This document shows, piece by piece, positions 3,656 through 38,347 of a stretch of 42,067 nucleotides of DNA. Each line of letters begins with the position of its first letter. Positions within the stretch are counted from its first letter, which is position 1. Below the pieces are notes generated by a model. It was not told where the DNA came from. It saw only the letters and a program-made list of their open reading frames with translations, and made no database searches. Position numbers and translations under genes: made by a program. This DNA is from Acidobacteriota bacterium. Lineage in GTDB: Bacteria; Acidobacteriota; UBA6911; JACQSX01. The stretch is taken from NCBI GenBank assembly GCA_036507075.1, contig DASXQR010000032.1:1-42067 (forward strand). The letters are read 5' to 3'.

Positions 3656-4051
3656 CTACTGATTGGCCAGAACCGAAATATCCTTGAGTTTGATCATTCG
3701 TCGGTCAGCAGTGACGAATGTCAATCCGAAAACTTTTGCTGTGGCGGCGAGAAAATGGTCGGCTGGATCTCGGTGCGAAAGATGTATCCGACCGGTCTGT
3801 AATGCGACTTCATGAGTTACAGGAGCCTCGGTCAGCGGTGCGGCCTGCATGGCTTTTGCGACCCACACGTCGAAAGGATCATCCAGAACCACGCGGCCTT
3901 TCCTGCAAAGGACCTGCAGCTCCCAGATACTGATTGGCGACAACCAGAGTCCATTGTCTGATTTCTCGAGTTCCTTCACGACGCGGCGGCTAAGGAGCTT
4001 GGGATCGAGAAGACTCCAGAGCCAGATATGGGTGTCGAGTAGAAGCTGCAT
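3656..4051 (-). CDS. vapC: Type II toxin, PIN domain (VapC)
   Basis: LLLDTHIWLW, SPISIWE, HRDPADHFLAATA, VTAD acidic PIN residues; overlaps the antitoxin stop codon. Confidence 0.92.
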   Translation of the reverse strand: MQLLLDTHIWLWSLLDPKLLSRRVVKELEKSDNGLWLSPISIWELQVLCRKGRVVLDDPFDVWVAKAMQAAPLTEAPVTHEVALQTGRIHLSHRDPADHFLAATAKVFGLTFVTADRRMIKLKDISVLANQ

Positions 4052-21912: not shown

Positions 21913-21940
21913 TTGACTCGATTGCCACCGATGGTATGAT
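21913..21940 (+). promoter_or_regulatory. sigma70-type promoter upstream of the riboswitch
   Basis: TTGACT (21913-21918), 16 bp, TATGAT (21935-21940) preceded by extended TG. Confidence 0.65.
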
Positions 21941-22358: not shown

Positions 22359-22651
22359 AGACCGCGAAGCGGTCAAAGAGAATAGCCGGGGGCAAGCGCA
22401 TTTTTTTGCGCGCCGCCCCCGGTCGAGGCCCCCAATCAGGAGCGACCCTGAAAGGGTCGAAAAGCGACGTGGCGACGGCGATCTTGAAAACGATTCTGGC
22501 ACCCTTTCAGGGTGCGCTGGTTGGGGGAAGCTCACCGGGGGCGGCGCGCAAAAAACGCGCTTGCCCCCGGCTATTCTCTCTGACGCTTTCAGCGTCCAGA
22601 CCGACAATTCAATCCTTTAGACTGGTTGGCACTGCGACGTGCTCTCTTTTT
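22359..22651. mobile_element. ~290-bp non-autonomous palindromic element (MITE/REPIN-like), copy 1
   Basis: Nested IRs gagaatagccgggggcaagcg / cgcttgcccccggctattctc and ccctgaaaggg / ccctttcaggg; near-identical copy at 31462-31752. Confidence 0.85.
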
Positions 22652-22761
22652 GGTTGCGGCTCTGCCACTGTAGCCTCGTGAACATGGACGGCCTTTTGGT
22701 TGCGGCCTGCGGCCGGGCTGTGCCTTTGTGGTTGATAGGACCGATCATTTTTGGAGCAAAA

Positions 22762-23817
22762 ATGAAGCGTGACAAGCAAGCAAAAACCACAAGTCTGCTT
22801 GCAGCAACGGCAATGACGTTTCTGCTGTGCTTTGCATCGTGCGCAAAAAGCGGGCCGGGAAATGGCAGCCGGGTGACTCTGATTCTGGGAGCTTACACGA
22901 CGCCCCGCGAGGCCTACAGCAAGGCGATCATTCCATCATTCAAGCAGGTGTGGAAGAGCAATTCCGGGCAGGATGTCGAGTTTCAGGCCTCCTATCAGGG
23001 AAGCGGATCTCAGGTGCGCGCCATCATCGGCGGATTTGAAGCAGATGTCGCAGCGCTCTCTTTGTCCGAAGACATTGACAAAATCCAGCAGGCAGGATTG
23101 ATTCACCACGACTGGAAATCCAAGCCCCACGGCGGAATGGCAACGCGGTCAATTGTGGTGATCGCCGTGCGGCCGGGCAATCCAAAGGGAATCAAGGACT
23201 GGCCCGATCTTGCCAAGCCGGGCTTGAATATCCTGACACCTGACCCGAAGACATCGGGCGGCGCGATGTGGAACATTAATGCAATATACGGCGCTGCCCT
23301 CAGGGGTCATGCGGGAGTTGCAGCCAACAACGCCGCGGCGGCAGAGCAGTTTCTCAAGAGCGTCTTTAAAAATGTGACCGTCATGGATAAGGGCGCGCGC
23401 GAATCCATCACCAATTTTGAACGGGGCGTGGGCGACGCGGCTATCACTTACGAGAATGAAGTGCTGGTCGGTCAGGCGGCAGGGCAAAAATACGAGTACA
23501 TCGTTCCACGCTCCACTATTCTGATCGAAAATCCGGTTGCCCTGGTTGATCAGTATGTGGACAAACACGGCACGCGCAAGGCGGCCGATGAGTTTCTCAA
23601 CTATCTCTGGAGCAAAGAGGCGCAGCGCGCATTCACGAAATTCGGACTGCGCCCGGTCGATCCTGATGTGGAAGGGGAGGCAGTGTCCCAATTTCGAGCC
23701 GTGGAAGACCTCTGGAAGATTGACTATCTGGGAGGCTGGAAGAAAGTGATTTCCGACATCTTCGGGCCGCAGGGAGTCTACAGTCGCATGCATCAGGAAC
23801 TGCATCAGTCCAAATGA
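22762..23817 (+). CDS. sbp: Sulfate ABC transporter substrate-binding protein (probable lipoprotein)
   Basis: SYQGSGSQVRAIIGGFEADV, GNPKGIKDWPDL, PDPKTSGGAMWN, GDAAITYENE, STILIENPVA; ATG 22762 with GGAG; FASC lipobox-like site. Confidence 0.9.
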   Translation: MKRDKQAKTTSLLAATAMTFLLCFASCAKSGPGNGSRVTLILGAYTTPREAYSKAIIPSFKQVWKSNSGQDVEFQASYQGSGSQVRAIIGGFEADVAALSLSEDIDKIQQAGLIHHDWKSKPHGGMATRSIVVIAVRPGNPKGIKDWPDLAKPGLNILTPDPKTSGGAMWNINAIYGAALRGHAGVAANNAAAAEQFLKSVFKNVTVMDKGARESITNFERGVGDAAITYENEVLVGQAAGQKYEYIVPRSTILIENPVALVDQYVDKHGTRKAADEFLNYLWSKEAQRAFTKFGLRPVDPDVEGEAVSQFRAVEDLWKIDYLGGWKKVISDIFGPQGVYSRMHQELHQSK

Positions 23818-24656
23818 GAGCAGCGGCTGCAGGCACGACGGCGTCAAGGAGCATTCCGTGGGGTTGCTGGGGACTGCGATCGGCGGCCGTCGCTTACCTG
23901 TCACTGATGGTGCTGATGCCGATTGGATCGATCGTGCATTACGGCTTCAGCGACGGTGTCGCCGGTTTTTGGCGCGAAATCTCAAATCCAGTGGCTGTTG
24001 GCGCGCTGCGTCTCACTCTGGTCACCGCATTCATCGCCACTATCACCAATGCGGTCATGGGGACGCTCACGGCCATGGCAATAGTCCGCTCCGAATTCGC
24101 CGGACGACATCTGCTCAACAGTCTGGTGGACGTGCCTTTCGCAATCCCGACCCTGGTAACCGGGGTGATGCTGGTGGTGCTGTACGGCCCGCAGACTACG
24201 CTGGGCTCATTGCTTGAAGCGAAAGGCATTCGCATCATCTTCGCCAAGCCCGGCATAGTGCTGGCGCTGCTTCTGGTGACGTACCCTTTTGTGATTCGCG
24301 CCGTGCAACCTGTGTTGCTGCAATTGGAACAGGAGCAGGAAGAGGCCGCCTTCACCATCGGCGCCAGCCGGTGGACGACGTTTTGGCGGATCATTCTGCC
24401 GGAAATCACTCCGGCCGTGCTGACAGGGTCGCTTTTGAACTTCGCCCGCGCTCTGGGCGAATTCGGCGCCATTGTGCTGGTGGCAGGAAACATTCCACGC
24501 CAGACTCTGACGGCTGCGGTGCACGTTTACGGCCAGGTCGAATCACAGAACCAACTCGGCGCCAGCGCAGTTTCGCTGCTGTTGCTCGCCCTCTCATTTT
24601 CTCTTCTGTTGCTGGTGGATCGAATACAACTGAGGCGGGAGGCGCGCCGTGCCTGA
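23814..24656 (+). CDS. cysT: Sulfate ABC transporter permease CysT
   Basis: LVDVPFAIPTLVTG, PFVIRAVQPVL, EEAA..IGAS, FARALGEFGAIVLVAGNIP. Confidence 0.92.
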   Translation: MRAAAAGTTASRSIPWGCWGLRSAAVAYLSLMVLMPIGSIVHYGFSDGVAGFWREISNPVAVGALRLTLVTAFIATITNAVMGTLTAMAIVRSEFAGRHLLNSLVDVPFAIPTLVTGVMLVVLYGPQTTLGSLLEAKGIRIIFAKPGIVLALLLVTYPFVIRAVQPVLLQLEQEQEEAAFTIGASRWTTFWRIILPEITPAVLTGSLLNFARALGEFGAIVLVAGNIPRQTLTAAVHVYGQVESQNQLGASAVSLLLLALSFSLLLLVDRIQLRREARRA

Positions 24657-25503
24657 TTTTTTCAGACGCTTCAGGGCAGATCGACGGCCCCGCAACCCGC
24701 GGCGCAATGGGGCTGACATGATACTGCTGGGAGTCGCCTTCGCATACGCCGGGGTATTGCTCATCGGTCCGCTCGCGGCGCTCATCTGGAGCAGTTTGAA
24801 GGACGGGCCGGCGATCTTCCTTCGTGAAATCAGCTCACCCGATGCGCTCCATGCTCTCAAGCTTACGCTGCAATTGAGCGCGGGAGCGACGGCTATCAAT
24901 ACCGTTTTCGGGCTGGTGATGGCCTGGGTTTTCGTGCGTGACCGGTTCAAGGGAAAGGCCTGGTTTAACGGATTAGTCGATCTGCCTTTCGCCGTTTCAC
25001 CGGTAATCGCGGGTTTGATGTTAATACTGCTGTTTGGGAGGGGAGGCTGGCTCAGCGGTTTGGCTGCAGCTCTCAACATCAGGGTCGTGTTTGCCGTGCC
25101 CGGGATGTTGCTGGCGACTGTTTTTGTCACCCTGCCATTTGTGGTTCGCGAAGTAATGCCCGTGCTCGAGCAGTTCGGCATCCAGCAGGAAAGCGCGGCT
25201 TATACCATCGGTGCCACGCCCTGGCAGACATTTCGCCTGGTCACTCTGCCCGCGATCCGCTGGGGTGTGCTTTACGGAATTTCACTTACGCTTGGCAGGG
25301 CGCTCGGTGAGTTCGGAGCGCTGGTCATAGTGAGCGGCGCGCTCAGCGGTTCGACTGAAACTTCCACTCTATTCATCTTCCGTTCTCTGGACGACCGAAA
25401 CTACACGGCCGCCTATTCCATGGCGCTCGTGCTCGCCGTTGTTTCTTTCAGCGTGCTTATCTTGATGGAGTTTTTCAGGAAGCGCGCCGGGATCAAACGA
25501 TAA
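24649..25503 (+). CDS. cysW: Sulfate ABC transporter permease CysW
   Basis: DLPFAVSPVIAGL, LATVFVTLPFVVRE, LPAIRWGVLYG, RALGEFGA; alternative start ATG ~24718. Confidence 0.92.
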   Translation: MPDFFRRFRADRRPRNPRRNGADMILLGVAFAYAGVLLIGPLAALIWSSLKDGPAIFLREISSPDALHALKLTLQLSAGATAINTVFGLVMAWVFVRDRFKGKAWFNGLVDLPFAVSPVIAGLMLILLFGRGGWLSGLAAALNIRVVFAVPGMLLATVFVTLPFVVREVMPVLEQFGIQQESAAYTIGATPWQTFRLVTLPAIRWGVLYGISLTLGRALGEFGALVIVSGALSGSTETSTLFIFRSLDDRNYTAAYSMALVLAVVSFSVLILMEFFRKRAGIKR

Positions 25504-25533
25504 TCCGCATAATGATGAGTGGAACAATCATTG

Positions 25534-26658
25534 ATGAGAAAGAAACCCATTAGCAGGTACCTGATGTTGGTTCTGGCTGCTCTGCTGCTTTCATCCAGGC
25601 CGGCTCAATCACAGAACAATGCCGGTCAAACAGGGGCTGCCGGATCCCAGAACTCCAAGCCTCCTGGCATCAGCCGCTGGCTTGAGATATCGAGCCTTAC
25701 CATAAATGCCCGCTACCGCTTCATCCAAACCACAGAGGGGATCACTACGACCAGCCACCTGCAGTACAGAGACTCGGTTGTAGGGCGCTTCAAATTCGAT
25801 CAGGAAGGCCGTTACACCCTCAATGCCGGGCTGCATACCGGCAAAACCTTCATCAGTGGCTGGGATGCGAGCGGTTGGGGACGCGGCGGTAACGGCGTCA
25901 CTAATCATTACCTGAAGCAACTGTACTTCTCAGCCAAACCGATGAAAGGTCTGGAGCTGCAATACGGCGGACTTTTTCTGCTCCGCGGTGAGACGACGGA
26001 AATCACCACCTATGACAATGACGCTTACATCGTGGGCCAGCGGATCAGTCTCAAAAAGCCGAAGGATTTCTTCTTTGACGAGATTTCAGTGACATACGCC
26101 TATCTGGGCGATACGACAAGGCCGAACCTCAATAAACGATTTAATCGCCTGCAGAAGTCTAACTATCATCAGTTTCTGCTAAGCAAGAAGATCAGCCCGC
26201 GGGCGACCGTTTCGGGGGATTACACGTTTCAATCGGGAATAGAAACGCTGCGCCAAGCGGTCACCGTCAACGTCCCGGAGTTTCGTCTCATCCACCGACT
26301 GCGCTTTGAGAACTATCAACGCGTCGATGTTCGGCCGGCATACGGATTCATGCTTTACGGCGAGCGGCCGGTCCTTGGCCGCGGCAATATTGGAGGAGGG
26401 TACGCCAGTATTGACCGCAACTACAGCGTCCTGAACGCAGATCGGTTCCAATTGAATTCGGACAAGTTTCAAAAGGGCAATCGCCTGTATCTGACGGGGA
26501 GCTGCAACCTACGTCCATTTCTTACTGTGTCTGCCTTTTGGTTACCCGCTGTGGCCAACAACTACCCCGTGGCGAATCAGCAACACTTCCAGTTGGTCGT
26601 GAGCTACGATCTCAGGAAAGTCTTGGGAAGCTGGGGGCCTTTCAAGTCGCCTAAGTAG
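25534..26658 (+). CDS. Putative outer-membrane beta-barrel/porin
   Basis: Signal peptide; alternating amphipathic strands rich in Tyr/Phe/Arg (INARYRF, LKQLYF, FQLVVSYDL); lies inside the cys operon. Confidence 0.65.
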   Translation: MRKKPISRYLMLVLAALLLSSRPAQSQNNAGQTGAAGSQNSKPPGISRWLEISSLTINARYRFIQTTEGITTTSHLQYRDSVVGRFKFDQEGRYTLNAGLHTGKTFISGWDASGWGRGGNGVTNHYLKQLYFSAKPMKGLELQYGGLFLLRGETTEITTYDNDAYIVGQRISLKKPKDFFFDEISVTYAYLGDTTRPNLNKRFNRLQKSNYHQFLLSKKISPRATVSGDYTFQSGIETLRQAVTVNVPEFRLIHRLRFENYQRVDVRPAYGFMLYGERPVLGRGNIGGGYASIDRNYSVLNADRFQLNSDKFQKGNRLYLTGSCNLRPFLTVSAFWLPAVANNYPVANQQHFQLVVSYDLRKVLGSWGPFKSPK

Positions 26659-26910: not shown

Positions 26911-28782
26911 ATGTCCATCGTTCTTGAAGAAGTCATAAAGCGGTTCGGCGACCACACGATCGTGGATCGGGTCTCGCTCGAGATCCAGGACAGCGAACTG
27001 TTTGTTCTACTGGGAGCAAGCGGCAGCGGCAAGACCACGATACTGCGCATCATCGCCGGGCTGGTGCAGCCCGACGGGGGAAAAGTTCTGCTGAAGGGAA
27101 GAGATGTAACCTGGCTTGCGCCCCAGCAGCGGGGAACAGGATTTGTGTTTCAGAACTATTCGATCTTTCGTCACATGAATGTGGCGCAGAACATTGAATT
27201 CGGGCTTAAGATCCGAAAAGTTGCGGCGGCCGAGCGGAAGCGAAAAAGCGATCAGTTGCTGGAAATGGTGGGCCTGACCGGCCTGGGAAACCGTTATGCC
27301 AGCCAGCTTTCAGGTGGCCAGCAGCAAAGAGTGGCTCTGGCGCGGGCACTGGCCTACGAACCGGAGGTCCTCCTTCTGGACGAACCGTTCGGAGCGCTGG
27401 ATGTAAAAATCCGGGCGCAGCTCCGGCGCAGCCTCAAAGAGATACAGCGCAGCCTTGGCGTGACGACCATCCTGGTAACACACGATCAGGAGGAAGCGTT
27501 CGAGCTGGCCGACCGCATCGGAGTTCTCGAGCGCGGACAACTGCTCGAAGTCGGAGAGGGCGACAAACTTTACCGCGAGCCGAAGACACTCTCGGTGGCT
27601 GCATTCCTGGGCGCCGGAAATGTTCTGGTGGGAATGGCGCAGCGCGGCCGCGCGCAATTCGGACCGATTTCACTTCCGATACCCGATGACGTGCCTCATG
27701 ACGACGGATCTCAGGTCCAGTTGCTGATCCGCCCCGAGCAGGTGAAGCTGCTGGAGGAGCAGCCTGAGTCGGACACGCCGGTCCTTGGAAAGGCGCGCGT
27801 GATGGAGAAGAGTTTTGCGGGGGCGGCGCAGCGGCTGCGCTTGAAGCTTCCTCATATTCCCGGCGTAAGACAGATCGCGCCTCCGACAGCATTTGGTGAG
27901 GAAGGGCTCATTCTTGAGGCCTCCATTGCAGTCGATGATCCGCTGCCGAACTCCGAACTGTGGGCGGCGCTTCGGGGATGGCATATCCTGGCCCAGCCCA
28001 GACGGCACCTGCTGGTCATCGATAGTGGTTCCGGCACGCCTGTGTCCCTTGAAATCGGAGCTTTTCTTGCCCGGCGCATGGATGCCTCCGCGACGGTGCT
28101 GGCGGTGGGGAAAAGCCCGGAATCTGCGGGACTGCTGGAAGCGGCCCTTAACAGCAGAATGGCCGCGGCAGGTTTGGATGACGCGCGGGCGCAAATCCGA
28201 CACGGAAATGTCGCCGAGCAGGTTTGCAGCGAAGCGGCTGAAGGCGTATATGAGATGTTGATCACAACACCCCAGGTCCAGCGGTTTTCCGATCGCGACG
28301 GGGCGACGGAACATCTCGGAGCCACTCTGGTCAAGATATTGAAGCGTGTGCCGATTCCGGTGCTGGTGGTTAAAGGGAGTACCAGAGAAATATCGCGCAT
28401 TCTGATTTGCACCGCGGTCGGTGAACCGGGAAAGCATGACGTCACGGTGGGAGGAAGGCTTGCCCGCCTGCTTGCCGCCGGTGCGACGCTGTTGTACGTG
28501 TCCCAAAACCCGGATCATCTGGGAAAACTGGTCAGCGCCCATCTGGAAAAGGCGGCCACTACGCTGCGTGAGATGGACGTGCCGGCGGAGGTCAGGATTC
28601 GTCGCGCAGGTTCGCCTCAAGAAGGCATCCTTGAAGAAGCGCGCGCCGGCGATTACGACTTGATCGTGGTGGGTGGGGCCCCGCCGAAATCGCGGCGATT
28701 CTCACGACTGCGAAACATTACCAGCGCCATTCTGGCGGGAGCCGACCGCCCGGTGCTGGTCGTACCCGCGAGCATGTCCTAG
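26911..28782 (+). CDS. cysA: Sulfate ABC ATPase CysA fused to two C-terminal universal stress protein (USP) domains
   Basis: GASGSGKT, FVFQNY, LSGGQQQRVALARALA, LLLDEPFGALD, VTHDQEEA; TOBE-like region; then HLLVID...IPVLVVK and RILICT...YDLIVVG...DRPVLVVP USP folds. Confidence 0.9.
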   Translation: MSIVLEEVIKRFGDHTIVDRVSLEIQDSELFVLLGASGSGKTTILRIIAGLVQPDGGKVLLKGRDVTWLAPQQRGTGFVFQNYSIFRHMNVAQNIEFGLKIRKVAAAERKRKSDQLLEMVGLTGLGNRYASQLSGGQQQRVALARALAYEPEVLLLDEPFGALDVKIRAQLRRSLKEIQRSLGVTTILVTHDQEEAFELADRIGVLERGQLLEVGEGDKLYREPKTLSVAAFLGAGNVLVGMAQRGRAQFGPISLPIPDDVPHDDGSQVQLLIRPEQVKLLEEQPESDTPVLGKARVMEKSFAGAAQRLRLKLPHIPGVRQIAPPTAFGEEGLILEASIAVDDPLPNSELWAALRGWHILAQPRRHLLVIDSGSGTPVSLEIGAFLARRMDASATVLAVGKSPESAGLLEAALNSRMAAAGLDDARAQIRHGNVAEQVCSEAAEGVYEMLITTPQVQRFSDRDGATEHLGATLVKILKRVPIPVLVVKGSTREISRILICTAVGEPGKHDVTVGGRLARLLAAGATLLYVSQNPDHLGKLVSAHLEKAATTLREMDVPAEVRIRRAGSPQEGILEEARAGDYDLIVVGGAPPKSRRFSRLRNITSAILAGADRPVLVVPASMS

Positions 28783-28793
28783 CACCTGAATAA

Positions 28794-29049
28794 CCCGCAA
28801 AGCGGGTGAAAAGAATTGTAGCCGGGGTGCGTAAGCCCCCGGATAGCCGGATTAAGTTATCCGCAAGCCGCGTAGCGGCGCCAGAATTCAGGCCGCCCCA
28901 TGATGATTTACATCGCAAATATGGATCCATTCAAGACGGTATCTGTCCGACTCAAAGCTCTGTCGCCGCGTTGCGGCTTTGTCGTCGTTATCTCGGCTAT
29001 CCGGGGGCTTACGCGCCCCGGCTACAATTCTTCGCGCCCACTTTGCGGG
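28794..29049. mobile_element. ~255-bp palindromic REPIN/MITE-like element
   Basis: Arms 28794-28849 and 28994-29049 are near-perfect inverted repeats (aagaattgtagccgggg.gcgtaagcccccggatagccg); inner IR aagccgcgtagcggcgccaga / tctgtcgccgcgttgcggctt. Confidence 0.85.
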
Positions 29050-29084
29050 CTTCATCGAATCCTTATGGTTCGATAGCGATTTTC

Positions 29085-31034
29085 ATGCGACAGATTCTGA
29101 TTCTATCTTTGAATCTTTTGCTTTACGCATACGGACAATCCCCGCTCCCGCCCAACGTTGTTCTGATAACCGTGGACACCCTGCGTCCGGATCATCTTGG
29201 TTGTTACGGCTACAGTGCGGCCAGGACTTCGGCCATCGACGGCCTGGCTGCCGAAGGCATCCGTTTCAGGACCGTTGTGGCGCAAGTTCCACTTACGCTC
29301 CCTTCCCATTGCACGATTCTGACCGGGACTTATCCGATGCTGCATGGCGTACGCGATAACGCCGGGTATCGCCTGCCATCCTCATTTACCACGCTGGCCG
29401 AGATTTTCCGGTCGCGGCATTACCGCACCGCTGCATTCGTCGGCTCCTATGTGTTGCATTCGAAATTTGGTCTGAACCAGGGGTTTGAATTCTACGATGA
29501 CCAGATTCAGGGAATCGCCTCTCCCGGCGGAATCCGCAATCTGAATCAACTCGAGCGGAGGGCCGGGGAAGTGATGCAACGGGCCGCCGGCTGGATCGAG
29601 AATGCGCGGCCTCCCTTTTTCGTCTGGGTACATCTGTATGATCCGCACGATCCCTATGATCCTCCGGCTCCATTCAACAGGGATTACGCGGGACATCCTT
29701 ACGACGGCGAGATCGCATATGCCGACAGCGAGATTGCGCGTCTGATTGCCGCGCTTCGCAGGCGAAATCTCTACGCCGATACCGTCATGGTCCTGACTTC
29801 AGACCACGGCGAAAGTTTTGGCGAGCACGGCGAGTTCACTCATGGTTATTACATCTATGATTCCACGCTGCTCGTGCCGTTGATCATCAAGCCCGCAGAG
29901 ATGATGAAGGCTCGCGTAATTGATCAACAGGTGCGGACGGTCGACATTGCCCCGACCATCCTTCAAATGCTGGCCTTGCCGAAACATGAGCAGATGCAGG
30001 GCACAGGACTGCTGGGACTGATGCTGGGACAGTCCACAGCTCCCGCCCAGGAAGCTTACAGCGAGACATATTACCCGGCCCAGTTCGGTTGGAGTTCCTT
30101 GAAGTCGCTGCGCAGCCGGGACCTGAAGTACATTGAAGCGCCGCGTCCGGAATTTTTCGATCTTAAGATCGACCCGCGGGAGTCGAGCAATCGGCTGGAA
30201 CAAAACAGCGCGCGCGCCGGTCAGATGAAAGAACGCCTCAAGTCGCTGGAGCGGTCCCTGGCGCCGCGCGGGGGAGCCATCGAGCGTTCACGCTTTGCGA
30301 GCCCTGAGACACTGGAGAAGCTGGCGGCTCTCGGTTACATCGGCGCCCCTTCGCGCGGAAATAGCTCTGCAGGCGTCCGGGCTTTACCTGATCCAAAGGA
30401 TAAGCTCGATGTCTTTCGCGTAATCTCGGAGGCGGGACAGATGGCCGCCAGCGGCCGCTGCGACTCGGCCATTCCACGGTTTTTGAAAATCCTGAGCAAC
30501 GATCCCGATATTACCGCGGTCCGATTTTTGAAAGGCCGTTGTCACTACAACCTGAAGCAATTTGAGGCGGCTCAGGATGACTTCAAAAAGGTGCTTGCTG
30601 CCGACCCCGGCAATCTGCAGGCGCGATTTTATCTGGCTGCTTCGGATTTCAATCTGCGGCGTCTGCAGGAGGCAGAGCGGGGATTTCAGAGGATTCTCGC
30701 AATCGACCGCGATTATGTCTTTGCTCACAAGTATCTCGGATTTATTTATCAGGAACGTGGATGGACTGAGCGAGCCATGGAGGAATTCCGCAAAACCGTC
30801 GAGCTGGATCCGGGTGACGCAGAAGCGCACGCAAAGCTGGGCTACCTGGCGTCGCAGCAGGGTAACTTTACTCAAGCAATCGGGCACTTCCGAAAGGTCA
30901 TCGAGCTGGACGGCCGGGATGCGGCCGCTCATTACAATTTAGGTCTTGCCTATTTGAAGACAGCTCAGTCGCAGCTCGCGCAGGAAGAATTGTCACAGGC
31001 ATGCCGGCTGGACGGGCGCTATTGCCGGCAGTAG
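29085..31034 (+). CDS. Sulfatase-like (alkaline-phosphatase superfamily) hydrolase with C-terminal TPRs
   Basis: NVVLITVDTLRPDH, PLTLPSH..ILTG, HLYDPHDPY, TSDHGE, HG..IYD; TPRs after LAALGYI; ATG 29085 begins a signal peptide. Confidence 0.9.
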   Translation: MRQILILSLNLLLYAYGQSPLPPNVVLITVDTLRPDHLGCYGYSAARTSAIDGLAAEGIRFRTVVAQVPLTLPSHCTILTGTYPMLHGVRDNAGYRLPSSFTTLAEIFRSRHYRTAAFVGSYVLHSKFGLNQGFEFYDDQIQGIASPGGIRNLNQLERRAGEVMQRAAGWIENARPPFFVWVHLYDPHDPYDPPAPFNRDYAGHPYDGEIAYADSEIARLIAALRRRNLYADTVMVLTSDHGESFGEHGEFTHGYYIYDSTLLVPLIIKPAEMMKARVIDQQVRTVDIAPTILQMLALPKHEQMQGTGLLGLMLGQSTAPAQEAYSETYYPAQFGWSSLKSLRSRDLKYIEAPRPEFFDLKIDPRESSNRLEQNSARAGQMKERLKSLERSLAPRGGAIERSRFASPETLEKLAALGYIGAPSRGNSSAGVRALPDPKDKLDVFRVISEAGQMAASGRCDSAIPRFLKILSNDPDITAVRFLKGRCHYNLKQFEAAQDDFKKVLAADPGNLQARFYLAASDFNLRRLQEAERGFQRILAIDRDYVFAHKYLGFIYQERGWTERAMEEFRKTVELDPGDAEAHAKLGYLASQQGNFTQAIGHFRKVIELDGRDAAAHYNLGLAYLKTAQSQLAQEELSQACRLDGRYCRQ

Positions 31035-31109: not shown

Positions 31110-31370
31110 ATGGTTGATAATGTTCCAAGGCATGACCTTGAGCGAGACCGCGCACCCGAAACCCTGCGATGGGAAGTCACACACCGCATGAACGGAACGA
31201 CGCCGGAGCAGTGGTGGACACCGCGGCCGGCGATTGCGGATGTCTCGCCCGAAGAATGGTCCAATGACAGCATCGACGAAGCGGCAAAATCGACCATGCA
31301 CGCACTGCAGAAGCTCGATGCGCAATTTTGGGAGCCGGTGAATCTGGATTCTCAGGAGAACGTGAAATGA
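31110..31370 (+). CDS. Hypothetical protein or gene fragment
   Basis: Trp/acidic-rich open frame co-oriented with neighbours; no recognisable motif; upstream part of the ORF call is a nonamer repeat. Confidence 0.3.
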   Translation: MVDNVPRHDLERDRAPETLRWEVTHRMNGTTPEQWWTPRPAIADVSPEEWSNDSIDEAAKSTMHALQKLDAQFWEPVNLDSQENVK

Positions 31371-31438
31371 CAAAGGGTATCACCCCAAAGACACAGCGCA
31401 GGGAAGCCGCAACCATTAACCATATTTTTCATTGCAGG

Positions 31439-34400
31439 ATGAATCTGGTTAAGCGGGCAGCAGACCGCGAAGCGGTCAAAGAGAATAGCCGGGGGCAAGC
31501 GCGTTTTTTGCGCGCCGCCCCCGGTCGAGCCCCCCAATCAGGAGCGACCCTGAAAGGGTCGAAGAGCGACGGGGTGACGGCGATCTTGAAAACGATTCTG
31601 GCACCCTTTCAGGGTGCGCTGGTTGGGGGAAGCTCACCGGGGGCGGCGCGCAAAAAACGCGCTTGGCCCCGGCTACTCTATTTGACGCTTTCAGCGTCCG
31701 GACCGGCAATTCAATCCCGTAGCTGGTTGGCACTGGGACGGGCTCTCTTTTTTGCCGCCGCGCTCCACGTCGCTTCCTGTTTCGCGCTGGCCGATCTGCA
31801 GGTCTTTGGGTCGTTTGAAGAAGCGTCAGAAGTGCAGGCCGTCCATGCCACAAACGGAGTCCGCATTACATCTTCCAAACGCTTTCCTGCCTGGAAAGGA
31901 GATTCGCTCGAGGTGATTTTCCCCGCGCAGGGCGGCGCCATCGAGTACTCGAAAATTCCAACCGATTGGCGCCGGCAGGAAGCGCTGCTTCTTTTTGTCT
32001 GGAGCGAGCAGCCGGCGCAATTGGAAATTACGCTGCGTGACTTGTCGCGCGCGTCATTCAGCAAAGCGTTCAATCTTCGCCCGGGAGCAAATCACCTGCA
32101 GCTTGCCATGGCCTCCCTGGTCGGAATCAACCGGGCACAAATGACGCAGCTTTCAATTCAATCGCGTGCGGCGGGAACTTTCTACCTGGATTATTTTGCA
32201 CTGGATCGATTTCATCCGATGCTGGAGAAGCGCGGCCGCTGGGACATCAACTACTCGATGGATGTTCCTACTCCCCACGTGCCCTGGGGCCGTCCCTTCG
32301 TCAATGGTCCGATTCATATTTATGCAATCGCCGATGTGGCCGACGGCCGCGGGGTCGTGGAGCTGGCGCAGAGGCTGGAGTCGAATTTCAAGGCAACGAC
32401 CATCGGCCGCAATACTTCCACGAACAAGTGGGGCTTTGGTGATTTTTATGAGCAGCGGAGCGCGGGAGGGGAATTCTGGATTGATGCCTACAGCCTGGCG
32501 TACACCTACATCGCCGACGATCTGATTCATGGTCCGGAATACGATGTGATCCTCTGGCCGGGTCTGCGTCCGTGGGAGAGCTATCCTGCTGAGGTTCGTG
32601 ATGCCGTTCGAAGGAGAGTGGAAAGCGGAACCGGCCTCGTCTTCTTCTACCCATTCAGCCGCGACGGGACCGCGAAGAACGAAAGCCTTTGGAATCCTTC
32701 GCCGCTGACGCGAGCGCAGGAGGTCAAGAGCGCAAGCAGCAACAATCCCTTACTCAATGATCTATCCCGGCTGGACCGCTCAATGTGGCGCCCGGCGGCG
32801 GGCCATTACATCACACGTGGTGTGCCGTTGGCGGCCTTCCCATGGGGTCATATCGGCGTGCCGGCGTCGCGTGCTGTCGGGGAGGTATTGCTCGAGACCT
32901 CCGAGAAGGTTCCAGTTCTCGCGGTGGGAAGCGCCGGCCGCGGTCGAGTGGTCGCTTTCGGATACAGTGAGAAGGGAATGATCCCGGAAATAGAACAGGT
33001 CTTCGAGACGGGATTGCACTATCCGTATCAGGAGTATCTCTGGTCGCTGGTAGCACGGGCGGTTACCTGGGCGGCTCGAAAGGAACCGGAACGCGGAATC
33101 GAGAAAATCAGTTTCCTGCAGGACCGCGTCGAAATCTCGCTCAATGGCCCAGTCCCGAACGCGCGCGCCTTGGTCTTAGTTCACAACAGCTTCGGAGAGT
33201 TGGAAGCCGAGATTTCTTCCCGCATATCCCTTTCTTCAAACAACGCGACGAGCCGTTTTCCACACTCGCTGCCGCCAGGACGACATTTTGCCGACGTGCG
33301 AGTGATCAGCGGCGACAAGGCTTTCGACTGGGCAGCGCAAGTCCTGGATGTCCCTTCGCGGCTGAAAATAGAAGTTCTCAAACTGGCGCGTGACCGGGTG
33401 GCTGCGGGAGAGGACGTCTTGGTAAACCTGCGGTTGTCTTCCAGCGAAAAAATCGAATGCCTCGCGAAGGTCCGGGTGCTGGACAATTTCGACCGGCTGC
33501 TGGATGAACAGCGTTTGCAGATCACTTTCGCCGGAGAAACAGAAAAATCAGTGACTTTGAAATCAGCCGGCTGCCTCTCTCATCTGGCACGGATTGAATG
33601 TGAAGTCTTTGCCGCAGGTGTCCGCCAGGACCGCCGTGTGGCAGAAGTGTTCATTCTTCAGCCTCGCAAATGGGATGACTACGACATCGTGATGTACCGG
33701 TTCGGGCCTGATCCAATTCCGGGGATCTGGCCCACAATCGATGCTCAGCTCCAGCGCCTCAACGTCACGACGCTGTCGTCCTACTCGCTGCAGCACAGCA
33801 AACATGCCAACTACAACGTGCAGGCGCAGACCCGTATCAGCGGCCAGGAATCTCCCGACGGGGCGGCGCGCGCCTACTATACTGCGATGAAAAAGAAATA
33901 TCTGGAGACCGGCGACAAGAATGTGCTGGTGCGGGAGTACTGTCTGGATGATCCGGCCTATCGCGCCCGCATTCGGGAGGAACTGACTCGACTGACCGCT
34001 CCCTGGGTGCCATTTTCTCCGCTGTCTTATTACGTTTTAGAGGAACCTTCGCTGACCTGTTACGGGGATGCCGTGGATATCTGTTTTTCGCCGTTCACCC
34101 TTGCGGCGATGCGACGGTGGCTGCAGAACAGCTACGGAAGCCTGGAAGCGCTGAATCAGCAGTGGAGCACGGATTTCCACCGCTGGGAAGATGTAACGCC
34201 CGACGATTCCCCCGCGGCGCAGAAGCGCGGCAATTACGCCTCCTGGGCGGATCATCGCACGTACATGGAAACGGTTTACGCCGGCACTTTCGAGTATGTC
34301 CTCCATGAACTTCAAAGGATCGACCCCGGCGGGATACTGCTCAATTCGGGTACGCAGATTTCAGGTTCGCACAACGGCTGCGATTACAGCCGGGTTGATT

Positions 34401-35884
34401 TGTTTACGCGCCATCTGAATGCCTACGAGGGGGGAAATCAGCTTGATTTCCATCGCTGTTTCAATCCGGACCTGAAAATCTCCGGCGGGGCTGGATACGG
34501 CGTTCTGGGAAAGGATGTCTTCTACAACCTGTACAACAGCCTGTTCAAGGGCGCCAACGGCGGGGCATATATCTTCTGGCAGTACTCCACCATTGATCCA
34601 GACCTTACGCTCAGCCAGAGCGGAAAAGACATGGAAGTCGGCTTTCGCGAAATTCGCGGAGATGGAATCGGGAAGCTGGTGGGACTGGCGAGACCGGACA
34701 ACAACGGAATTGCGATCCATTACTCCTACCCGAGCATTCATGGCTCCTGGATCGTGGATGGTAAAGTTCAGGAGAAGGTTACCTACCACACGAGCAGCGC
34801 GTTTGACCGGTTCAACGAAAATCGCGATGGGTGGGTCAAAATCCTGAAAGATGCAGGCTTGCAGTTCGACTTCATCGCCTACAGCGACGTCGAAAAGGGA
34901 GGATTGCTTTCGAAAAAATACCGCACTTTTATTTTGCCGATGAGTATTGCTTTAAGCGAGAGAGAAGCCGCAGCAATCCGTGAGTTTGTCCGCCAGGGAG
35001 GCACCGTGATCGCGGACGCGCTGCCCGGCATCATGGACGAACACTGCACCTTTCGGAAGCAGCGCCTGTTGGGAGACGTGTTCGGCGTGGAATGGCAACC
35101 GTCGGACCGCGACGCCTTGGTCGAGGGACGCGGCGGCGAGCAGGTGACGCTGCTGAGCGCGCAACCTTTTTTGGAGGCGGATGGAAAGCGGATTCTTTTG
35201 CGCAACCAGTTTGGCAGCGGCCGGGCTTACCTTCTCAATTACTTGCTTCACTCCTATCCGGCTGACAAGCTGGAAGGGAAATCCGGCGCGGCGCTGCTGC
35301 GTTTCAAGCGGCTTCTGGAAGATGCAGGGATCATCCCCCCAGTTCGCCTCGCTTCGGCAGGCGGGGCCGGCGTGAACGGTTGTCCCACTTATCTGTTCAA
35401 CAACGGATCGACCCAGCTTCTCGGGTTGGTTCCGGACAAAGGAAGGCGTGGAGCGGAGAAGATTCGAATCATTACGGGCGGTGGACCCCGTCACATCTAC
35501 GATGTTCGGCAGAAGCGGTACCTCGGATTTGCCGCCGAAGTGGAAACGGACATAGAACCGGCGGTCCCGCGGCTGTTCGCATTCGTCGGGCGTCCGGCCG
35601 GCAGGATTGAATTGACCGCGCCCGCCCGGATGCGTCGCGGAGCGGAGATTCAAATAGGAATCCACGTTGCGGGCGTCGACGATCTGCGCTCGGTGGCCAG
35701 AGTTGAAGTGCGGGATCCGCGCGGGCAAACGGTGCGATATTACAGCGGCAACGAAGACGTTGTTGACTCGCGCGCTGTCAAGCGGTTAATGACAGCGTTG
35801 AATGATCCTGCCGGCATCTGGCAAGTGGAGGTCACCGAAGTAATCAGCGGGAAGAAAGCATTGGCGAAAATCCGGGTTGAGTGA
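31439..35884 (+). CDS. Large secreted multidomain glycoside-hydrolase-like protein (GH42 beta-galactosidase-like TIM barrel + trimerisation domain)
   Basis: MRRWLQNSYGSLEALNQQWSTDF..WEDV GH42-type motif; C-terminal YRTFILP...AIREFVRQGGTVIAD; N-terminal CBM-like and glutamine-amidotransferase-like segments. Start uncertain (ATG 31439 or TTG 31727). Confidence 0.75.
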   Translation: MNLVKRAADREAVKENSRGQARFLRAAPGRAPQSGATLKGSKSDGVTAILKTILAPFQGALVGGSSPGAARKKRAWPRLLYLTLSASGPAIQSRSWLALGRALFFAAALHVASCFALADLQVFGSFEEASEVQAVHATNGVRITSSKRFPAWKGDSLEVIFPAQGGAIEYSKIPTDWRRQEALLLFVWSEQPAQLEITLRDLSRASFSKAFNLRPGANHLQLAMASLVGINRAQMTQLSIQSRAAGTFYLDYFALDRFHPMLEKRGRWDINYSMDVPTPHVPWGRPFVNGPIHIYAIADVADGRGVVELAQRLESNFKATTIGRNTSTNKWGFGDFYEQRSAGGEFWIDAYSLAYTYIADDLIHGPEYDVILWPGLRPWESYPAEVRDAVRRRVESGTGLVFFYPFSRDGTAKNESLWNPSPLTRAQEVKSASSNNPLLNDLSRLDRSMWRPAAGHYITRGVPLAAFPWGHIGVPASRAVGEVLLETSEKVPVLAVGSAGRGRVVAFGYSEKGMIPEIEQVFETGLHYPYQEYLWSLVARAVTWAARKEPERGIEKISFLQDRVEISLNGPVPNARALVLVHNSFGELEAEISSRISLSSNNATSRFPHSLPPGRHFADVRVISGDKAFDWAAQVLDVPSRLKIEVLKLARDRVAAGEDVLVNLRLSSSEKIECLAKVRVLDNFDRLLDEQRLQITFAGETEKSVTLKSAGCLSHLARIECEVFAAGVRQDRRVAEVFILQPRKWDDYDIVMYRFGPDPIPGIWPTIDAQLQRLNVTTLSSYSLQHSKHANYNVQAQTRISGQESPDGAARAYYTAMKKKYLETGDKNVLVREYCLDDPAYRARIREELTRLTAPWVPFSPLSYYVLEEPSLTCYGDAVDICFSPFTLAAMRRWLQNSYGSLEALNQQWSTDFHRWEDVTPDDSPAAQKRGNYASWADHRTYMETVYAGTFEYVLHELQRIDPGGILLNSGTQISGSHNGCDYSRVDLFTRHLNAYEGGNQLDFHRCFNPDLKISGGAGYGVLGKDVFYNLYNSLFKGANGGAYIFWQYSTIDPDLTLSQSGKDMEVGFREIRGDGIGKLVGLARPDNNGIAIHYSYPSIHGSWIVDGKVQEKVTYHTSSAFDRFNENRDGWVKILKDAGLQFDFIAYSDVEKGGLLSKKYRTFILPMSIALSEREAAAIREFVRQGGTVIADALPGIMDEHCTFRKQRLLGDVFGVEWQPSDRDALVEGRGGEQVTLLSAQPFLEADGKRILLRNQFGSGRAYLLNYLLHSYPADKLEGKSGAALLRFKRLLEDAGIIPPVRLASAGGAGVNGCPTYLFNNGSTQLLGLVPDKGRRGAEKIRIITGGGPRHIYDVRQKRYLGFAAEVETDIEPAVPRLFAFVGRPAGRIELTAPARMRRGAEIQIGIHVAGVDDLRSVARVEVRDPRGQTVRYYSGNEDVVDSRAVKRLMTALNDPAGIWQVEVTEVISGKKALAKIRVE
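31462..31752. mobile_element. ~290-bp palindromic element, copy 2
   Basis: Near-identical direct copy of 22359-22651; stop-free in the frame of the downstream gene. Confidence 0.85.
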
Positions 35885-35889
35885 GCAAT

Positions 35890-36231
35890 AGAATGCGGAA
35901 TGCGGAAGGCGGAAGGCGGAAGGCAGGAGGCAGAAGGCAGAAGGCGGAAGGCGGAAGGCGGAAGGCGGTAGGACGCGAATACTCTGTGCTCTCTGAAATA
36001 GTAGGTTGGCAACTTTTTGATTTTGGCAAAGTTTTTCGAAATCCCGCACAGGCGCCCCATCCGGGGCGCAAAATGGGGTACTGGAGTCTTATGACACCAC
36101 TACCCAAAATGGACGGCTTTTTTCTTGCGGTCTGCGGCTACACTGGCGCTTTGCGGTGATTGCCAGCAAAATATGAAGACCCATTCCACATTCCGCATTT
36201 CCCATTCCACATTCCGCATTCCACATTCCGC
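35890..36231. repeat. Inverted heptamer arrays (GGCGGAA/TGCGGAA vs ATTCCRC)
   Basis: About 11 units at 35890-35968; 7 units ATTCCAC/ATTCCGC/ATTTCCC at 36183-36231. Confidence 0.9.
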
Positions 36232-38347
36232 AATCGGAATTTTGGTTCTGGTCGTCCTGGCGACGCAGGCCTCGGCCCAGGTCTATTCCCCGAAGGTGCT
36301 GGTCAAGGGTCAGGTCGACACTACCGATCCGAAAGCTCTGGCTGCCGCCATTTACGCGCAGTCGGGCGCGGTCACCCCCAGGGAAAAAGCCGAGGCGATC
36401 TGGCGCTTCTTTCTTACGGACGGACGGTTCGTGGCGCCGGGATTCTGGTATCACATTGCAGGCTGGGCCTACGAAGAGCCCGTGGGCGAAGTGCTGGACC
36501 CGATAAAGCTGCTCAACAGTTACGGGTTTGGTCTCTGCTATCACATCGCACCGCTGCTGGAGGCTGTCTGGGAAGCCGGCGGCTTCAGCGATGCCCGCGT
36601 CTGGTTTCTCACCGGCCACACGGTCGCCGAGGTTTTCTACGACGGCGCCTATCATTATTTTGATTCCGATTTGCTCGGCTTCAACACAGTGGGAACGGGC
36701 GATCCGAAAAAGCTGGCGGTCGCCTCGGTACGGCAGGTCGAGGCAGACGGCGATATCATTTTGGGAAAATTGATCGCTCCCAATAAGTCCGATGCCTCCC
36801 GGGTGGTCTATCCATGGTATCCCGCCGATGTTAAGGGATCGGAAATGAACGGACTGGTGGAGCTCTTCACTTCCACGCAGGATAATTGGCTCTTTCCCTT
36901 CACCCGATATGCCGCCGGGCATCGGATGGATTTTGTTTTGCGCCCGGGCGAGCGCCTCACTCGTTTTTTCCATCCCGAGAATTCAAGCCTCTTTTATCTT
37001 CCCTACAAGCGCACTGAAAAAGGATGGGAAGAATTTCCGGAAGAGGTTGCGCACTATCGGATCCGGACGCCAGATGGCCCGCGCAGCCAGAAGGACAATC
37101 GTTACTGGGCGACCGGCAAGCTTGAATACACACCGGTGCTCTCGGACCCGAAGGCCTACTACCCGCTTTTTCAATCCGGCTACAACGAGAATCTGCGGCT
37201 GCCGGAGGGCCGAACCCAAAACGGCTTTGTTACCTGGCGGCAGCCGGGGAAAATGGCGCGCGCCGTGTTTGAAGTCCAGTCTCCCTACGTTATTATCGAT
37301 GGGAATTTTTCCGTCGATTTGGCGCTGGCGCAATTGGATCAATCACTGCTGGTCGAGACATCCATTGACGGAGGCAGGAACTGGCAGTCCGCCGGCAAAT
37401 GGAACGGACCGTTCCAGGGACGCTGCAGCGGCGCTCCGGCGGTTTTGTCCCGATCCGAACATGGGACCCTTACAGCCGTTTCAGGTCATTATGCATACCT
37501 GCTGCGTTTCACGTTTCAGGGATCAGGCTCTGTCGAACCGGTTCGGTTGAGCAACATTGTTATCAATACTCGTTTTCAACTGAATCCTCGTTCCCTGCCG
37601 AAACTCAATTCCGGTCGTAATGAGCTCGTTTACCGGTCCGGAACGGCAGAGCGCTGGCGCGCTATTCCGGTCGGGCTGGAAGCCCTGAACGATTTCGCCT
37701 TTCGTCAATCCGGCGTCCGCTACACTGCTTCGGAATCTCAAGGTTTCCTGGAATCACTGCAAGGCAGAACCGCCGAAGTAATTTTCGAAATATCCGCTCC
37801 GGGGGATTCCGCGCTGAAGGCTTTCGAGGCTGGTGGAAGATTTCTCGATCTGAACGGGGGTCTGGCCCCAGACAAGTTTACCGCTGAAGTGCGAAGGATT
37901 GCTCGGGCGCATCCATTGACCGATCCGGCGGGAGCTACATCGCTAAGCTGGTCGTTATCGCCCGGTGGTCCGTTCAAGATTCTCTGGCAATACCGGGCGG
38001 GCTGGAATGGCATGGATGGCGAGCGCGTCGATCGCGCCCTCCGCTGGCCGGAAGTTGATCGGCGGATTCTCGAGTTGCCGTCCGGAACACGGCACGTTTA
38101 TGTAAGGTACAGATTCCGGGCGATGGCGCTGGACAATATCCGTTTATCGGCGGTCAACGTGGAGAAAGACGCATCGCCGGCGCTGGAAATCACTCATGTC
38201 TGGTCGCGCGAGGGACGGCCGCAGTACCACCGTGAAGCAGTCGACCGGCCTTGGCATGCTCGCACCTACACGGTCGATACGGGCGAAGGGCCTCTGGAAA
38301 ATGAGGCAATCATTTTTTATTGCCCGAGGCCGGACGAAAAACGCTGA
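36173..38347 (+). CDS. Secreted protein with N-terminal transglutaminase-like (Cys-His-Asp) domain
   Basis: GFGLCYHIA ... GHTVAEVFYDGAYHYFDSD triad pattern; signal GILVLVVLATQASA; beta-rich C-terminus; start ATG 36173. Confidence 0.75.
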   Translation: MKTHSTFRISHSTFRIPHSAIGILVLVVLATQASAQVYSPKVLVKGQVDTTDPKALAAAIYAQSGAVTPREKAEAIWRFFLTDGRFVAPGFWYHIAGWAYEEPVGEVLDPIKLLNSYGFGLCYHIAPLLEAVWEAGGFSDARVWFLTGHTVAEVFYDGAYHYFDSDLLGFNTVGTGDPKKLAVASVRQVEADGDIILGKLIAPNKSDASRVVYPWYPADVKGSEMNGLVELFTSTQDNWLFPFTRYAAGHRMDFVLRPGERLTRFFHPENSSLFYLPYKRTEKGWEEFPEEVAHYRIRTPDGPRSQKDNRYWATGKLEYTPVLSDPKAYYPLFQSGYNENLRLPEGRTQNGFVTWRQPGKMARAVFEVQSPYVIIDGNFSVDLALAQLDQSLLVETSIDGGRNWQSAGKWNGPFQGRCSGAPAVLSRSEHGTLTAVSGHYAYLLRFTFQGSGSVEPVRLSNIVINTRFQLNPRSLPKLNSGRNELVYRSGTAERWRAIPVGLEALNDFAFRQSGVRYTASESQGFLESLQGRTAEVIFEISAPGDSALKAFEAGGRFLDLNGGLAPDKFTAEVRRIARAHPLTDPAGATSLSWSLSPGGPFKILWQYRAGWNGMDGERVDRALRWPEVDRRILELPSGTRHVYVRYRFRAMALDNIRLSAVNVEKDASPALEITHVWSREGRPQYHREAVDRPWHARTYTVDTGEGPLENEAIIFYCPRPDEKR

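Follow-up and report, generated by a model that had tools for sequence, protein, structure and literature searches.

Why should the ATPase of a likely sulfate importer end in two universal stress protein (USP) domains, and does cyclic di-AMP (c-di-AMP), whose riboswitch lies 5' of the importer genes, also act on the protein itself? The question is posed by a contig of 42,067 nucleotides from an Acidobacteriota bacterium, analysed over its whole length and referred to here as the window, in which the open reading frame (ORF) 26911-28782 of the forward strand encodes an ATP-binding cassette (ABC) protein of 623 aa with the domain order ABC ATPase-TOBE-USP-USP. The genes run sbp-cysT-cysW-(porin-like)-cysA on one strand, 3' of the riboswitch. 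A preliminary description of the locus had cast the USP tail as a second c-di-AMP sensor, placing the importer under dual transcriptional and allosteric control. What we observed of the domain architecture, the order of the genes, the riboswitch and the pattern of conservation is best explained, with a probability of roughly 0.45, by two layers of control in which c-di-AMP would act on the RNA only, and another adenylate would bind the second USP domain (USP2) as a built-in brake.

The domain structure was established by three approaches. Pfam placed ABC_tran at residues 19-160, TOBE_2/CysA_C_terminal weakly at 237-327 and Usp in two stretches, and each half of the tail, when submitted separately, exceeded the Usp (PF00582) cut-off of 24 bits (27.2 and 41.9). 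AlphaFold2 modelled the full-length protein from a 104-sequence alignment with a predicted local distance difference test (pLDDT) score of 87.1 and a predicted template modelling (pTM) score of 0.79, the tail appearing as two five-strand/four-helix units; the tail alone (68 sequences) was likewise predicted as two USP folds, with pLDDT 89.3 and pTM 0.89. Foldseek and a wide structural search both returned tandem USPs as the top fold matches of the tail: TTHA0350 (Z 25.3, root-mean-square deviation 2.6 over 233; profile match E 1e-11), UspE (Z 24.2), AF1760 (23.9) and Rv2623 (23.2), with the KCC/NKCC tails and TeaD (Z ~15) and the USP of KdpD (7JI4; Z 12.7) ranking lower. The three approaches agree with the earlier account of ~260 extra residues forming two USP-like folds; the start given there, 27995, lies one base off the frame, codon 362 being at 27994. 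A scan of the whole 623-aa protein found no G-x2-G-x9-G(S/T) motif, in keeping with the earlier statement that neither USP domain has an intact ATP motif, and Pfam matched no CBS or RCK domain in it. We use the name CysA because of gene context and the top fold match, Alicyclobacillus CysA 1Z47 (Foldseek rank 1, 39% identity); the curated NCBIfam CysA models do not carry the label, the ATPase scoring below their cut-offs (TIGR00968, 310.9 against 342.75; NF008105, 295 against 502), as it did below that of the top NCBIfam model, PhnT2.

The fusion is conserved in more than 100 uncultured bacteria of several phyla. Searching with the tail recovered 115 proteins, nearly all of 590-645 aa and bearing ABC_tran plus Usp, and a DNA pattern for the USP2 loop matched at least 119 stretches in GTDB representatives, for 80 of which flanking DNA was retrieved. 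An ABC domain stood at the fusion distance in 68/68 loci with enough upstream DNA; in two loci (L025 and L045) the reading frame was interrupted. The loci belong mostly to Acidobacteriota and Chloroflexota, and also to Bdellovibrionota, Bipolaricaulota, Armatimonadota, Gemmatimonadota and others; there was none from Pseudomonadota among the matches listed, which fits a need for c-di-AMP and, equally, lineage history. The closest free relatives of the tail are stand-alone tandem USPs, and conservation was therefore compared between 137 full-length fusions and 40 such proteins, fragments and two other long proteins being left out. As to the claim that the ABC-USP architecture was undescribed, a search of titles and abstracts, with most subscription journals outside its reach, found no description of it, and mycobacterial CysA1 is described without a USP tail (PMC7761784).

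The two USP domains have fared differently. GEP[GA]K occurs in 125/137 fused proteins vs 0/40 stand-alone relatives, whereas the ATP motif occurs in 30/40 stand-alone tandem USPs vs 1/137 fused tails. In the 104-row alignment, columns conserved at 90% or more numbered 6/128 in USP1, 35/127 in USP2 and 22/126 in TOBE, and within the beta1-alpha1 segment 15/24 in USP2 and 1/24 in USP1. These contrasts suggest that, along with the fusion, the old site decayed while a new loop became fixed in USP2, and USP2 is conserved like a functional site. In USP1 the Asp of the beta1-alpha1 loop is retained (66%) and the Gly mostly lost. The residue that follows A-x-G-E-P-G-K is Ser in about a quarter of the family; reading this string as a PP-loop or Walker A would be a matter of resemblance, and it is not used as evidence. 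Three elements of the USP adenosine pocket, namely a small last beta1 residue, an aliphatic-Y/H-x end of beta2 and the first Gly of beta4-alpha4 (PMC8214093), are retained in USP2 as C500, L528-Y/H529-V530 and G588, the beta2 end and G588 being 90-99% conserved; the Asp of the beta1-alpha1 loop is replaced by Ala there.

To bind c-di-AMP, the USP of KdpD employs the motif (A/G/C)xSxSxxN(Y/F), and both S244A and S244D abolish binding (PMC8214093). This motif was found in 0/137 fusions. The position of Ser244 is occupied by A502 in USP2 (92-96%) and by D371 in USP1 (~66%), in a register taken from alignment to TTHA0350 and not from direct alignment to 7JI4, and the USP2 equivalents of S244, S246 and N249 are Ala, Gly and Gly. 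Nor is the missing ATP motif diagnostic of c-di-AMP, since the C-terminal domain of TTHA0350 binds ATP despite lacking it (PMC3673472); in KCC1, too, ATP/ADP is bound by a USP-like tail, lysines of the beta1/alpha1 loop taking part (PMC8280820). Conversely, KimA binds c-di-AMP via a PPAT-like domain (PMC10284832), so that a new binding mode in the tail is conceivable. Binding of c-di-AMP by the tail is not supported by these residues, and it appears more likely that the tail senses an adenine nucleotide other than c-di-AMP.

The RNA presents a different picture. The riboswitch that had been placed upstream of the operon scored well above the Rfam gathering score (Table 1), is conserved in one clade and is the only RF00379 copy detected in the window's genome. 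Across 17 sbp-linked aptamers, 15/42 predicted pairs exhibited two-sided changes, and in the window's aptamer a pair in the last hairpin is exchanged with pairing kept. Positions invariant in 36 aptamers before other genes are kept in the 21 sbp-linked copies, bar two trimmed at the 5' end; because the core is the same, we read the sbp-linked RNA as probably an ordinary c-di-AMP aptamer. An aptamer of altered specificity for adenosine 5'-phosphosulfate (APS) or 3'-phosphoadenosine 5'-phosphosulfate (PAPS) was considered and rejected, as no core position, compared by sequence column and not by structure-mapped contact, separates the 21 copies from the 36. A hairpin with a U-rich tail lies within 130 nt 3' of the aptamer in 14/16 relatives, eight of them at -18 kcal/mol or lower (no shuffle control); none was found within 130 nt of the window's aptamer, where a repeat element has lengthened the leader to ~600 nt and may have altered regulation.

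Linkage between fusion and riboswitch was scored in the 80 flanked loci, of which 27 had no sbp in view and three too little upstream DNA, leaving 50. With window-type Sbp defined as 55% identity or more, an nhmmer profile detected the riboswitch within 1 kb upstream of sbp in 10/15 operons of the window's type and in 0/35 with other types; Rfam searches of eight loci agreed with these calls. Under a stricter filter, 18/50 fusion genomes contained any RF00379 match genome-wide. Within the window's own class (116 genomes), the riboswitch was present at 3/13 window-type sbp loci, the window included, and Rfam found none in 20 sbp loci of the class; of the other window-type loci, three stand behind an Rrf2 gene and one behind cysNC. 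Forty genomes of the class Blastocatellia, sampled evenly, contained six fusion carriers, and these were exactly the six with riboswitch-sbp; four have both on the same strand of one contig at a distance of 5-7 kb, and two were already among the pattern-scan loci. The aptamer also occurred in 11 further genomes of the sample, in which the gene behind it was not sbp. Altogether an aptamer followed by sbp was found in 23 genomes (the 21 compared copies plus L070 and L071). In a quick tree of 57 full-length proteins, from which loci without a usable start were left out, all 16 riboswitch-linked rows fell within one Acidobacteriota-dominated clade of 19 rows (support 85), and for this reason we take the link to be real and to reflect approximately one recruitment event, as judged from the tree, onto an older fusion.

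Clade-specific changes in the pocket were sought and discarded as a candidate: 19 columns differ between 17 riboswitch-clade tails and 47 others, with no new pocket residue among them, and the CTAxGEPGKxD loop differs between those clades only at the variable position 503. A PF02457 cyclase was found in 47/50 fusion genomes and in 10/11 of a second, partly overlapping set; as support this co-occurrence was rejected, the baseline in unselected relatives being 110/116 and 57/61. The complete genome G046 (Bdellovibrionota) gave no PF02457 or TIGR00159 match, and it carries an intact fusion with the full loop, 3' of cysD-cysNC-sbp-cysT-cysW; the loss of the cyclase may be recent, since this is one genome only and most of its relatives possess a cyclase. 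The fusion is thus distributed largely independently of the riboswitch (10/50 operons), and the cyclase is near-universal in these lineages.

Of the proposal in the preliminary description, then, the ABC-USP-USP architecture and the riboswitch upstream of the operon are supported, and the genome (95.7% complete) has one diadenylate cyclase, whereas the tail as c-di-AMP sensor is not supported: the KdpD determinants are absent, the fusion is wider than the riboswitch and intact in the cyclase-less G046, and the pocket is the same across clades. As to its precedent of c-di-AMP-inhibited OpuA/OpuC ATPases, c-di-AMP inhibits transport by L. lactis OpuA yet stimulates its ATPase activity (PMC7673798).

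With c-di-AMP confined to the RNA and another adenylate on USP2, events might have run as follows. The tail would derive from stand-alone tandem USPs of a family in which the ATP site of the first domain is normal. Once the fusion had formed, the ATP site of USP1 would have decayed, and in USP2 a G-E-P-G-K-x-D loop would have become fixed where helix 1 begins, beside the adenosine pocket. The loop lysine and backbone amides could hold the phosphate or phosphosulfate end of a ligand, for which ATP/ADP is a first guess and APS, PAPS or pAp (adenosine 3',5'-bisphosphate) a second. Binding would stiffen the tails below the TOBE domains and slow the cycle of the nucleotide-binding domains (NBDs), and such braking would match uptake to energy or sulfur status. 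On the RNA, high c-di-AMP would stabilise the aptamer and transcription would stop at a terminator, repression being assumed by analogy with kimA/ktrAB (PMC10284832); the terminator is visible in many relatives and not in the window's genome, with its repeat in the leader. In one Acidobacteriota lineage, c-di-AMP likely controls the amount of the pump via the riboswitch; that it governs sulfate uptake for osmotic and charge balance is one inference, suggested by a USP-USP-GpgS gene inside two of the operons.

This gene (L076:6607-8469 and L078:6619-8469) encodes a fusion of two USPs to glucosyl-3-phosphoglycerate synthase (GpgS) and lies directly 5' of cysA-USP; it scored above the cut-off of NF010496, and its USP part is 23% like the ATPase tail and without GEPGK. 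One of the two operons has the riboswitch and the other does not.

Several observations weigh against adenylate sensing and riboswitch control as just outlined. USP2 has Ala at the adenine-contacting Asp/Ser position (alignment to TTHA0350), and KdpD S244A lost AMP binding too (PMC8214093), so that the USP2 pocket may not take an adenylate at all; at two positions, moreover, the window's copy is unlike the family consensus, with Ala for H590 and Asn for D602. The gene 5' of cysA is separated from it by 252 nt that contain a weak promoter-like site, co-transcription of riboswitch and cysA being presumed. No ATP sulfurylase was found in the window's genome (95.7% complete; cysH at a contig end), and 21/50 fusion genomes, which are incomplete metagenome assemblies, gave no PF01507 (CysH/CysD) match, which weakens APS/PAPS as a general ligand.

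The same data bear on three alternatives. Dual c-di-AMP control, with the tail binding c-di-AMP in a non-KdpD mode to block uptake and the riboswitch adding transcriptional control as for kimA/ktrAB, could claim the riboswitch before sbp in 23 genomes, the coincidence of carriers in Blastocatellia, the cyclase in 47/50 fusion genomes, the lack of Pseudomonadota among the matches listed and the osmolyte gene within two operons; KimA does bind c-di-AMP without the KdpD motif (PMC10284832), and residue 502 is Ala, not the Asp whose presence in KdpD leads to a clash with c-di-AMP (PMC8214093). We nonetheless consider it unlikely, given the absent motif and its Ala-Gly-Gly replacement, the middling rank of 7JI4, the restriction of the riboswitch to part of one Sbp type and to approximately one event, the lack of any pocket residue that tracks the riboswitch, the uninformative cyclase baseline and the cyclase-less G046. 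In its fullest form, sulfate import in Gram-negative Acidobacteriota would be under double c-di-AMP control, by way of a ydaO riboswitch taken over from genes for potassium transport and of a new CTAxGEPGKxD pocket in the tail, which we likewise hold to be improbable; if true, this would add another mode of USP binding, unrelated to the first, and make the uptake of sulfate part of the osmotic c-di-AMP regulon.

The glycine-lysine loop of USP2 helix 1 might instead be an anion nest for cytoplasmic sulfate or thiosulfate that shuts the importer, a form of trans-inhibition for which the shutting of ModBC by molybdate is a precedent. The K-x-D ending arose only in the fusion with an oxyanion importer, the loop persists alongside each of the three Sbp types and also in genomes without a CysH/CysD or cyclase match, and the Asp that contacts adenine is gone. 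Conservation is nevertheless still seen at the end of beta2 and at G588, which face ribose and adenine in other USPs, and the TOBE domain, the usual location of such a site, is itself present and conserved, so that we rate this idea as quite unlikely. It is also doubtful that the tail is a ligand-free docking or dimerisation module, the USP2 face packing on TOBE/NBD, the other protomer or a partner protein. Both canonical ligand motifs are indeed absent, the domains of the full-length model are held in a fairly fixed arrangement (pTM 0.79), most crystallised USPs whose motifs are fully degenerate contained no ligand (PMC3673472), and for Rv2623, itself a tandem USP, control of an ABC transporter works through protein contact (PMC5549992); conservation, in contrast, centres on the nucleotide pocket of the fold, formed jointly by the beta1-alpha1 loop, the end of beta2 and the glycine of beta4.

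Table 1. Features of the riboswitch, operon and ATPase, in window coordinates.
Feature	Position	Strand	Evidence or remark
Promoter-like site, sigma-70-type, 10/12, extended TG	21913..21940	+	Consensus match; 45 nt 5' of aptamer
c-di-AMP (ydaO) riboswitch aptamer RF00379	21986-22161	+	59.8 bits, gathering score 38
Palindromic repeat element, 305 nt, in leader between aptamer and sbp	22359..22663		Second copy 31462-31752
Sulfate-binding protein, Sbp/SubI-like lipoprotein	22762..23817	+	TIGR00971 239.8 bits, cut-off 155.5; 1SBP, 5UM2, 6DDN matches
Permease CysT	23814..24656	+	TIGR02139 273.8 bits, cut-off 246.1
Permease CysW-like	24649..25503	+	TIGR00969 295.7 bits, cut-off 240; TIGR02140 below cut-off
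379-aa protein, likely outer-membrane porin	25519..26658	+	No Pfam match; porin clusters at 0.93-0.94
ABC ATPase domain, residues 1-235	26911..27615	+	Walker A, Q-loop, signature, Walker B, H-loop all intact
TOBE/OB regulatory domain, residues 236-361	27616..27993	+	Pfam, model and fold match
USP1, residues ~365-486	28003..28368	+	Degenerate nucleotide site; weak conservation
USP2, residues ~496-618	28396..28764	+	Pocket residues C500, L528-Y529-V530, G588 conserved
Fusion-specific beta1-alpha1 loop, C500-T-A-V-G-E-P-G-K-H-D510	28408..28440	+	In USP2

The cluster likely encodes a sulfate/thiosulfate ABC importer, as judged from its protein families. The sbp start (ATG 22762) was inferred from a ribosome-binding-like GGAG, the PDB matches of the window's Sbp were sulfate-binding proteins only, and both permeases exceeded the TIGR00969 cut-off; in Blastocatellia loci, Porin_O_P genes occupy the place equivalent to that of the 379-aa gene. 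Promoter-like sites numbered four in the region, against 2.9 expected. The palindromic repeat occurs at 38 places in the genome, 15 of them of 200 nt or more. Elsewhere in this genome, cysH and cysG-like genes stand at a contig end (C60:98512-100894); Sat, CysD/CysN and APS kinase were not found in the 95.7% complete assembly. Among the relatives, sulfur neighbours upstream comprise cysD-cysNC (L059) and cysNC (L160), and Rrf2 genes occur in L155, L173/L065 (one contig) and L174.

Other arrangements were encountered in passing. In a second operon type (L003, L013, L017, L026 and ~30 similar loci) the permease is single, and the Sbp is divergent (31-41% identity) and fell below the TIGR00971 cut-off in 3/3 tested; its substrate may differ from sulfate, because many such genomes gave no CysH/CysD match. 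In three loci (L015, L033 and L067) the fusion gene had no sbp or permease genes in ~9-10 kb upstream, and in the genome of the first (G012) the riboswitch-sbp-cysT part is on a separate contig. Where the riboswitch precedes genes other than sbp, its neighbours across the sets include APC permeases, KdpA and a Band-7 protein, two of six giving no Pfam match. Further ydaO targets among Acidobacteriota include a recurrent membrane-protein gene (L147, L148, L150, L151, L152, L192 and L194), with a Band-7 match in L192 and no Pfam match in L147, as well as kdpA (L137) and APC/KimA-like permeases (L146, L196, L201, L202 and L205). L065:3255-3328 matched a fluoride riboswitch barely above the gathering score.

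Palindromic repeats are numerous in the window, which at 7-489 also has a gene for an IS200-type (Y1) transposase. Those at 31462-31752 and 28794-29049 fall within the N-termini as predicted for ORFs 31328-35884 and 28806-31034, whose real starts are for that reason probably downstream. Between 9015 and 20280 are a LacI regulator, a TonB-dependent receptor, a GMC oxidoreductase with gluconate-dehydrogenase subunit 3, a dehydrogenase dependent on pyrroloquinoline quinone (PQQ) and a protein with PQQ repeats, a set of genes that likely serves the oxidation of sugars; an Ion_trans_2 channel gene (973-2139), a PIN-domain gene (3656-4051) and a 740-aa ORF without a Pfam match (36125-38347) were also present.

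Both the fusion and the riboswitch link extend known kinds, the regulated ABC ATPase and the ydaO regulon. A review passage names as ydaO targets the transporters of K+ and amino acids together with genes for the cell wall and osmotic functions, sulfate not being among them (PMC7266159), and a search of titles and abstracts, most subscription journals being beyond its reach, found no description of a canonical, covarying c-di-AMP riboswitch before a sulfate ABC operon; the gene-association lists of Nelson 2013 and Block 2010 may already name sulfate transporters. Such associations matter in that they define what the messenger controls. The USP tail offers a compact and sharply conserved pocket that arose with the fusion, and the ligand of USP2 would show how a USP tunes an ABC importer, in a family whose function is mostly unexplained.

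Among type I importer ATPases, CysA 1Z47, MalK, PotA and ModC share the NBD-TOBE core, CysA also sharing the sbp-cysT-cysW context; the window's ATPase differs from all of them by its ~260 tandem-USP residues, and no solved structure among the matches listed exceeded a TM score of 0.52 by query length against the full protein. The tandem USPs TTHA0350 (3AB7/3AB8), UspE, Rv2623, AF1760 and PA1789 have the same two-domain fold (Z 23-25) but are free proteins, whereas the window's module is fused to a transport ATPase and has lost the USP1 ATP site; the GEPGKxD loop of fused USP2 is missing from the 40 stand-alone relatives. With the USP of Staphylococcus aureus KdpD (7JI4) the tail shares the fold, the lack of a Walker-like motif, the first Gly and the beta2 stretch, but KdpD has a single USP in a kinase, with the (A/G/C)xSxSxxN(Y/F) motif that all 137 fusions lack. 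OpuA and OpuC also carry a regulatory domain on a transporter, with CBS tails where USPs stand here, and the Opu importers move betaine where the window's cluster would by homology move an oxyanion. KimA and KtrAB have RF00379 upstream as well, their substrate being K+ in place of the oxyanion expected here. The tails of KCC1-type cotransporters are also USP-fold transporter regulators, which bind ATP/ADP and have beta1/alpha1 lysines (PMC8280820); these tails, like TeaD of TeaABC, belong to secondary transporters and share 11-26% identity with the fused module, TeaD moreover being a separate protein.

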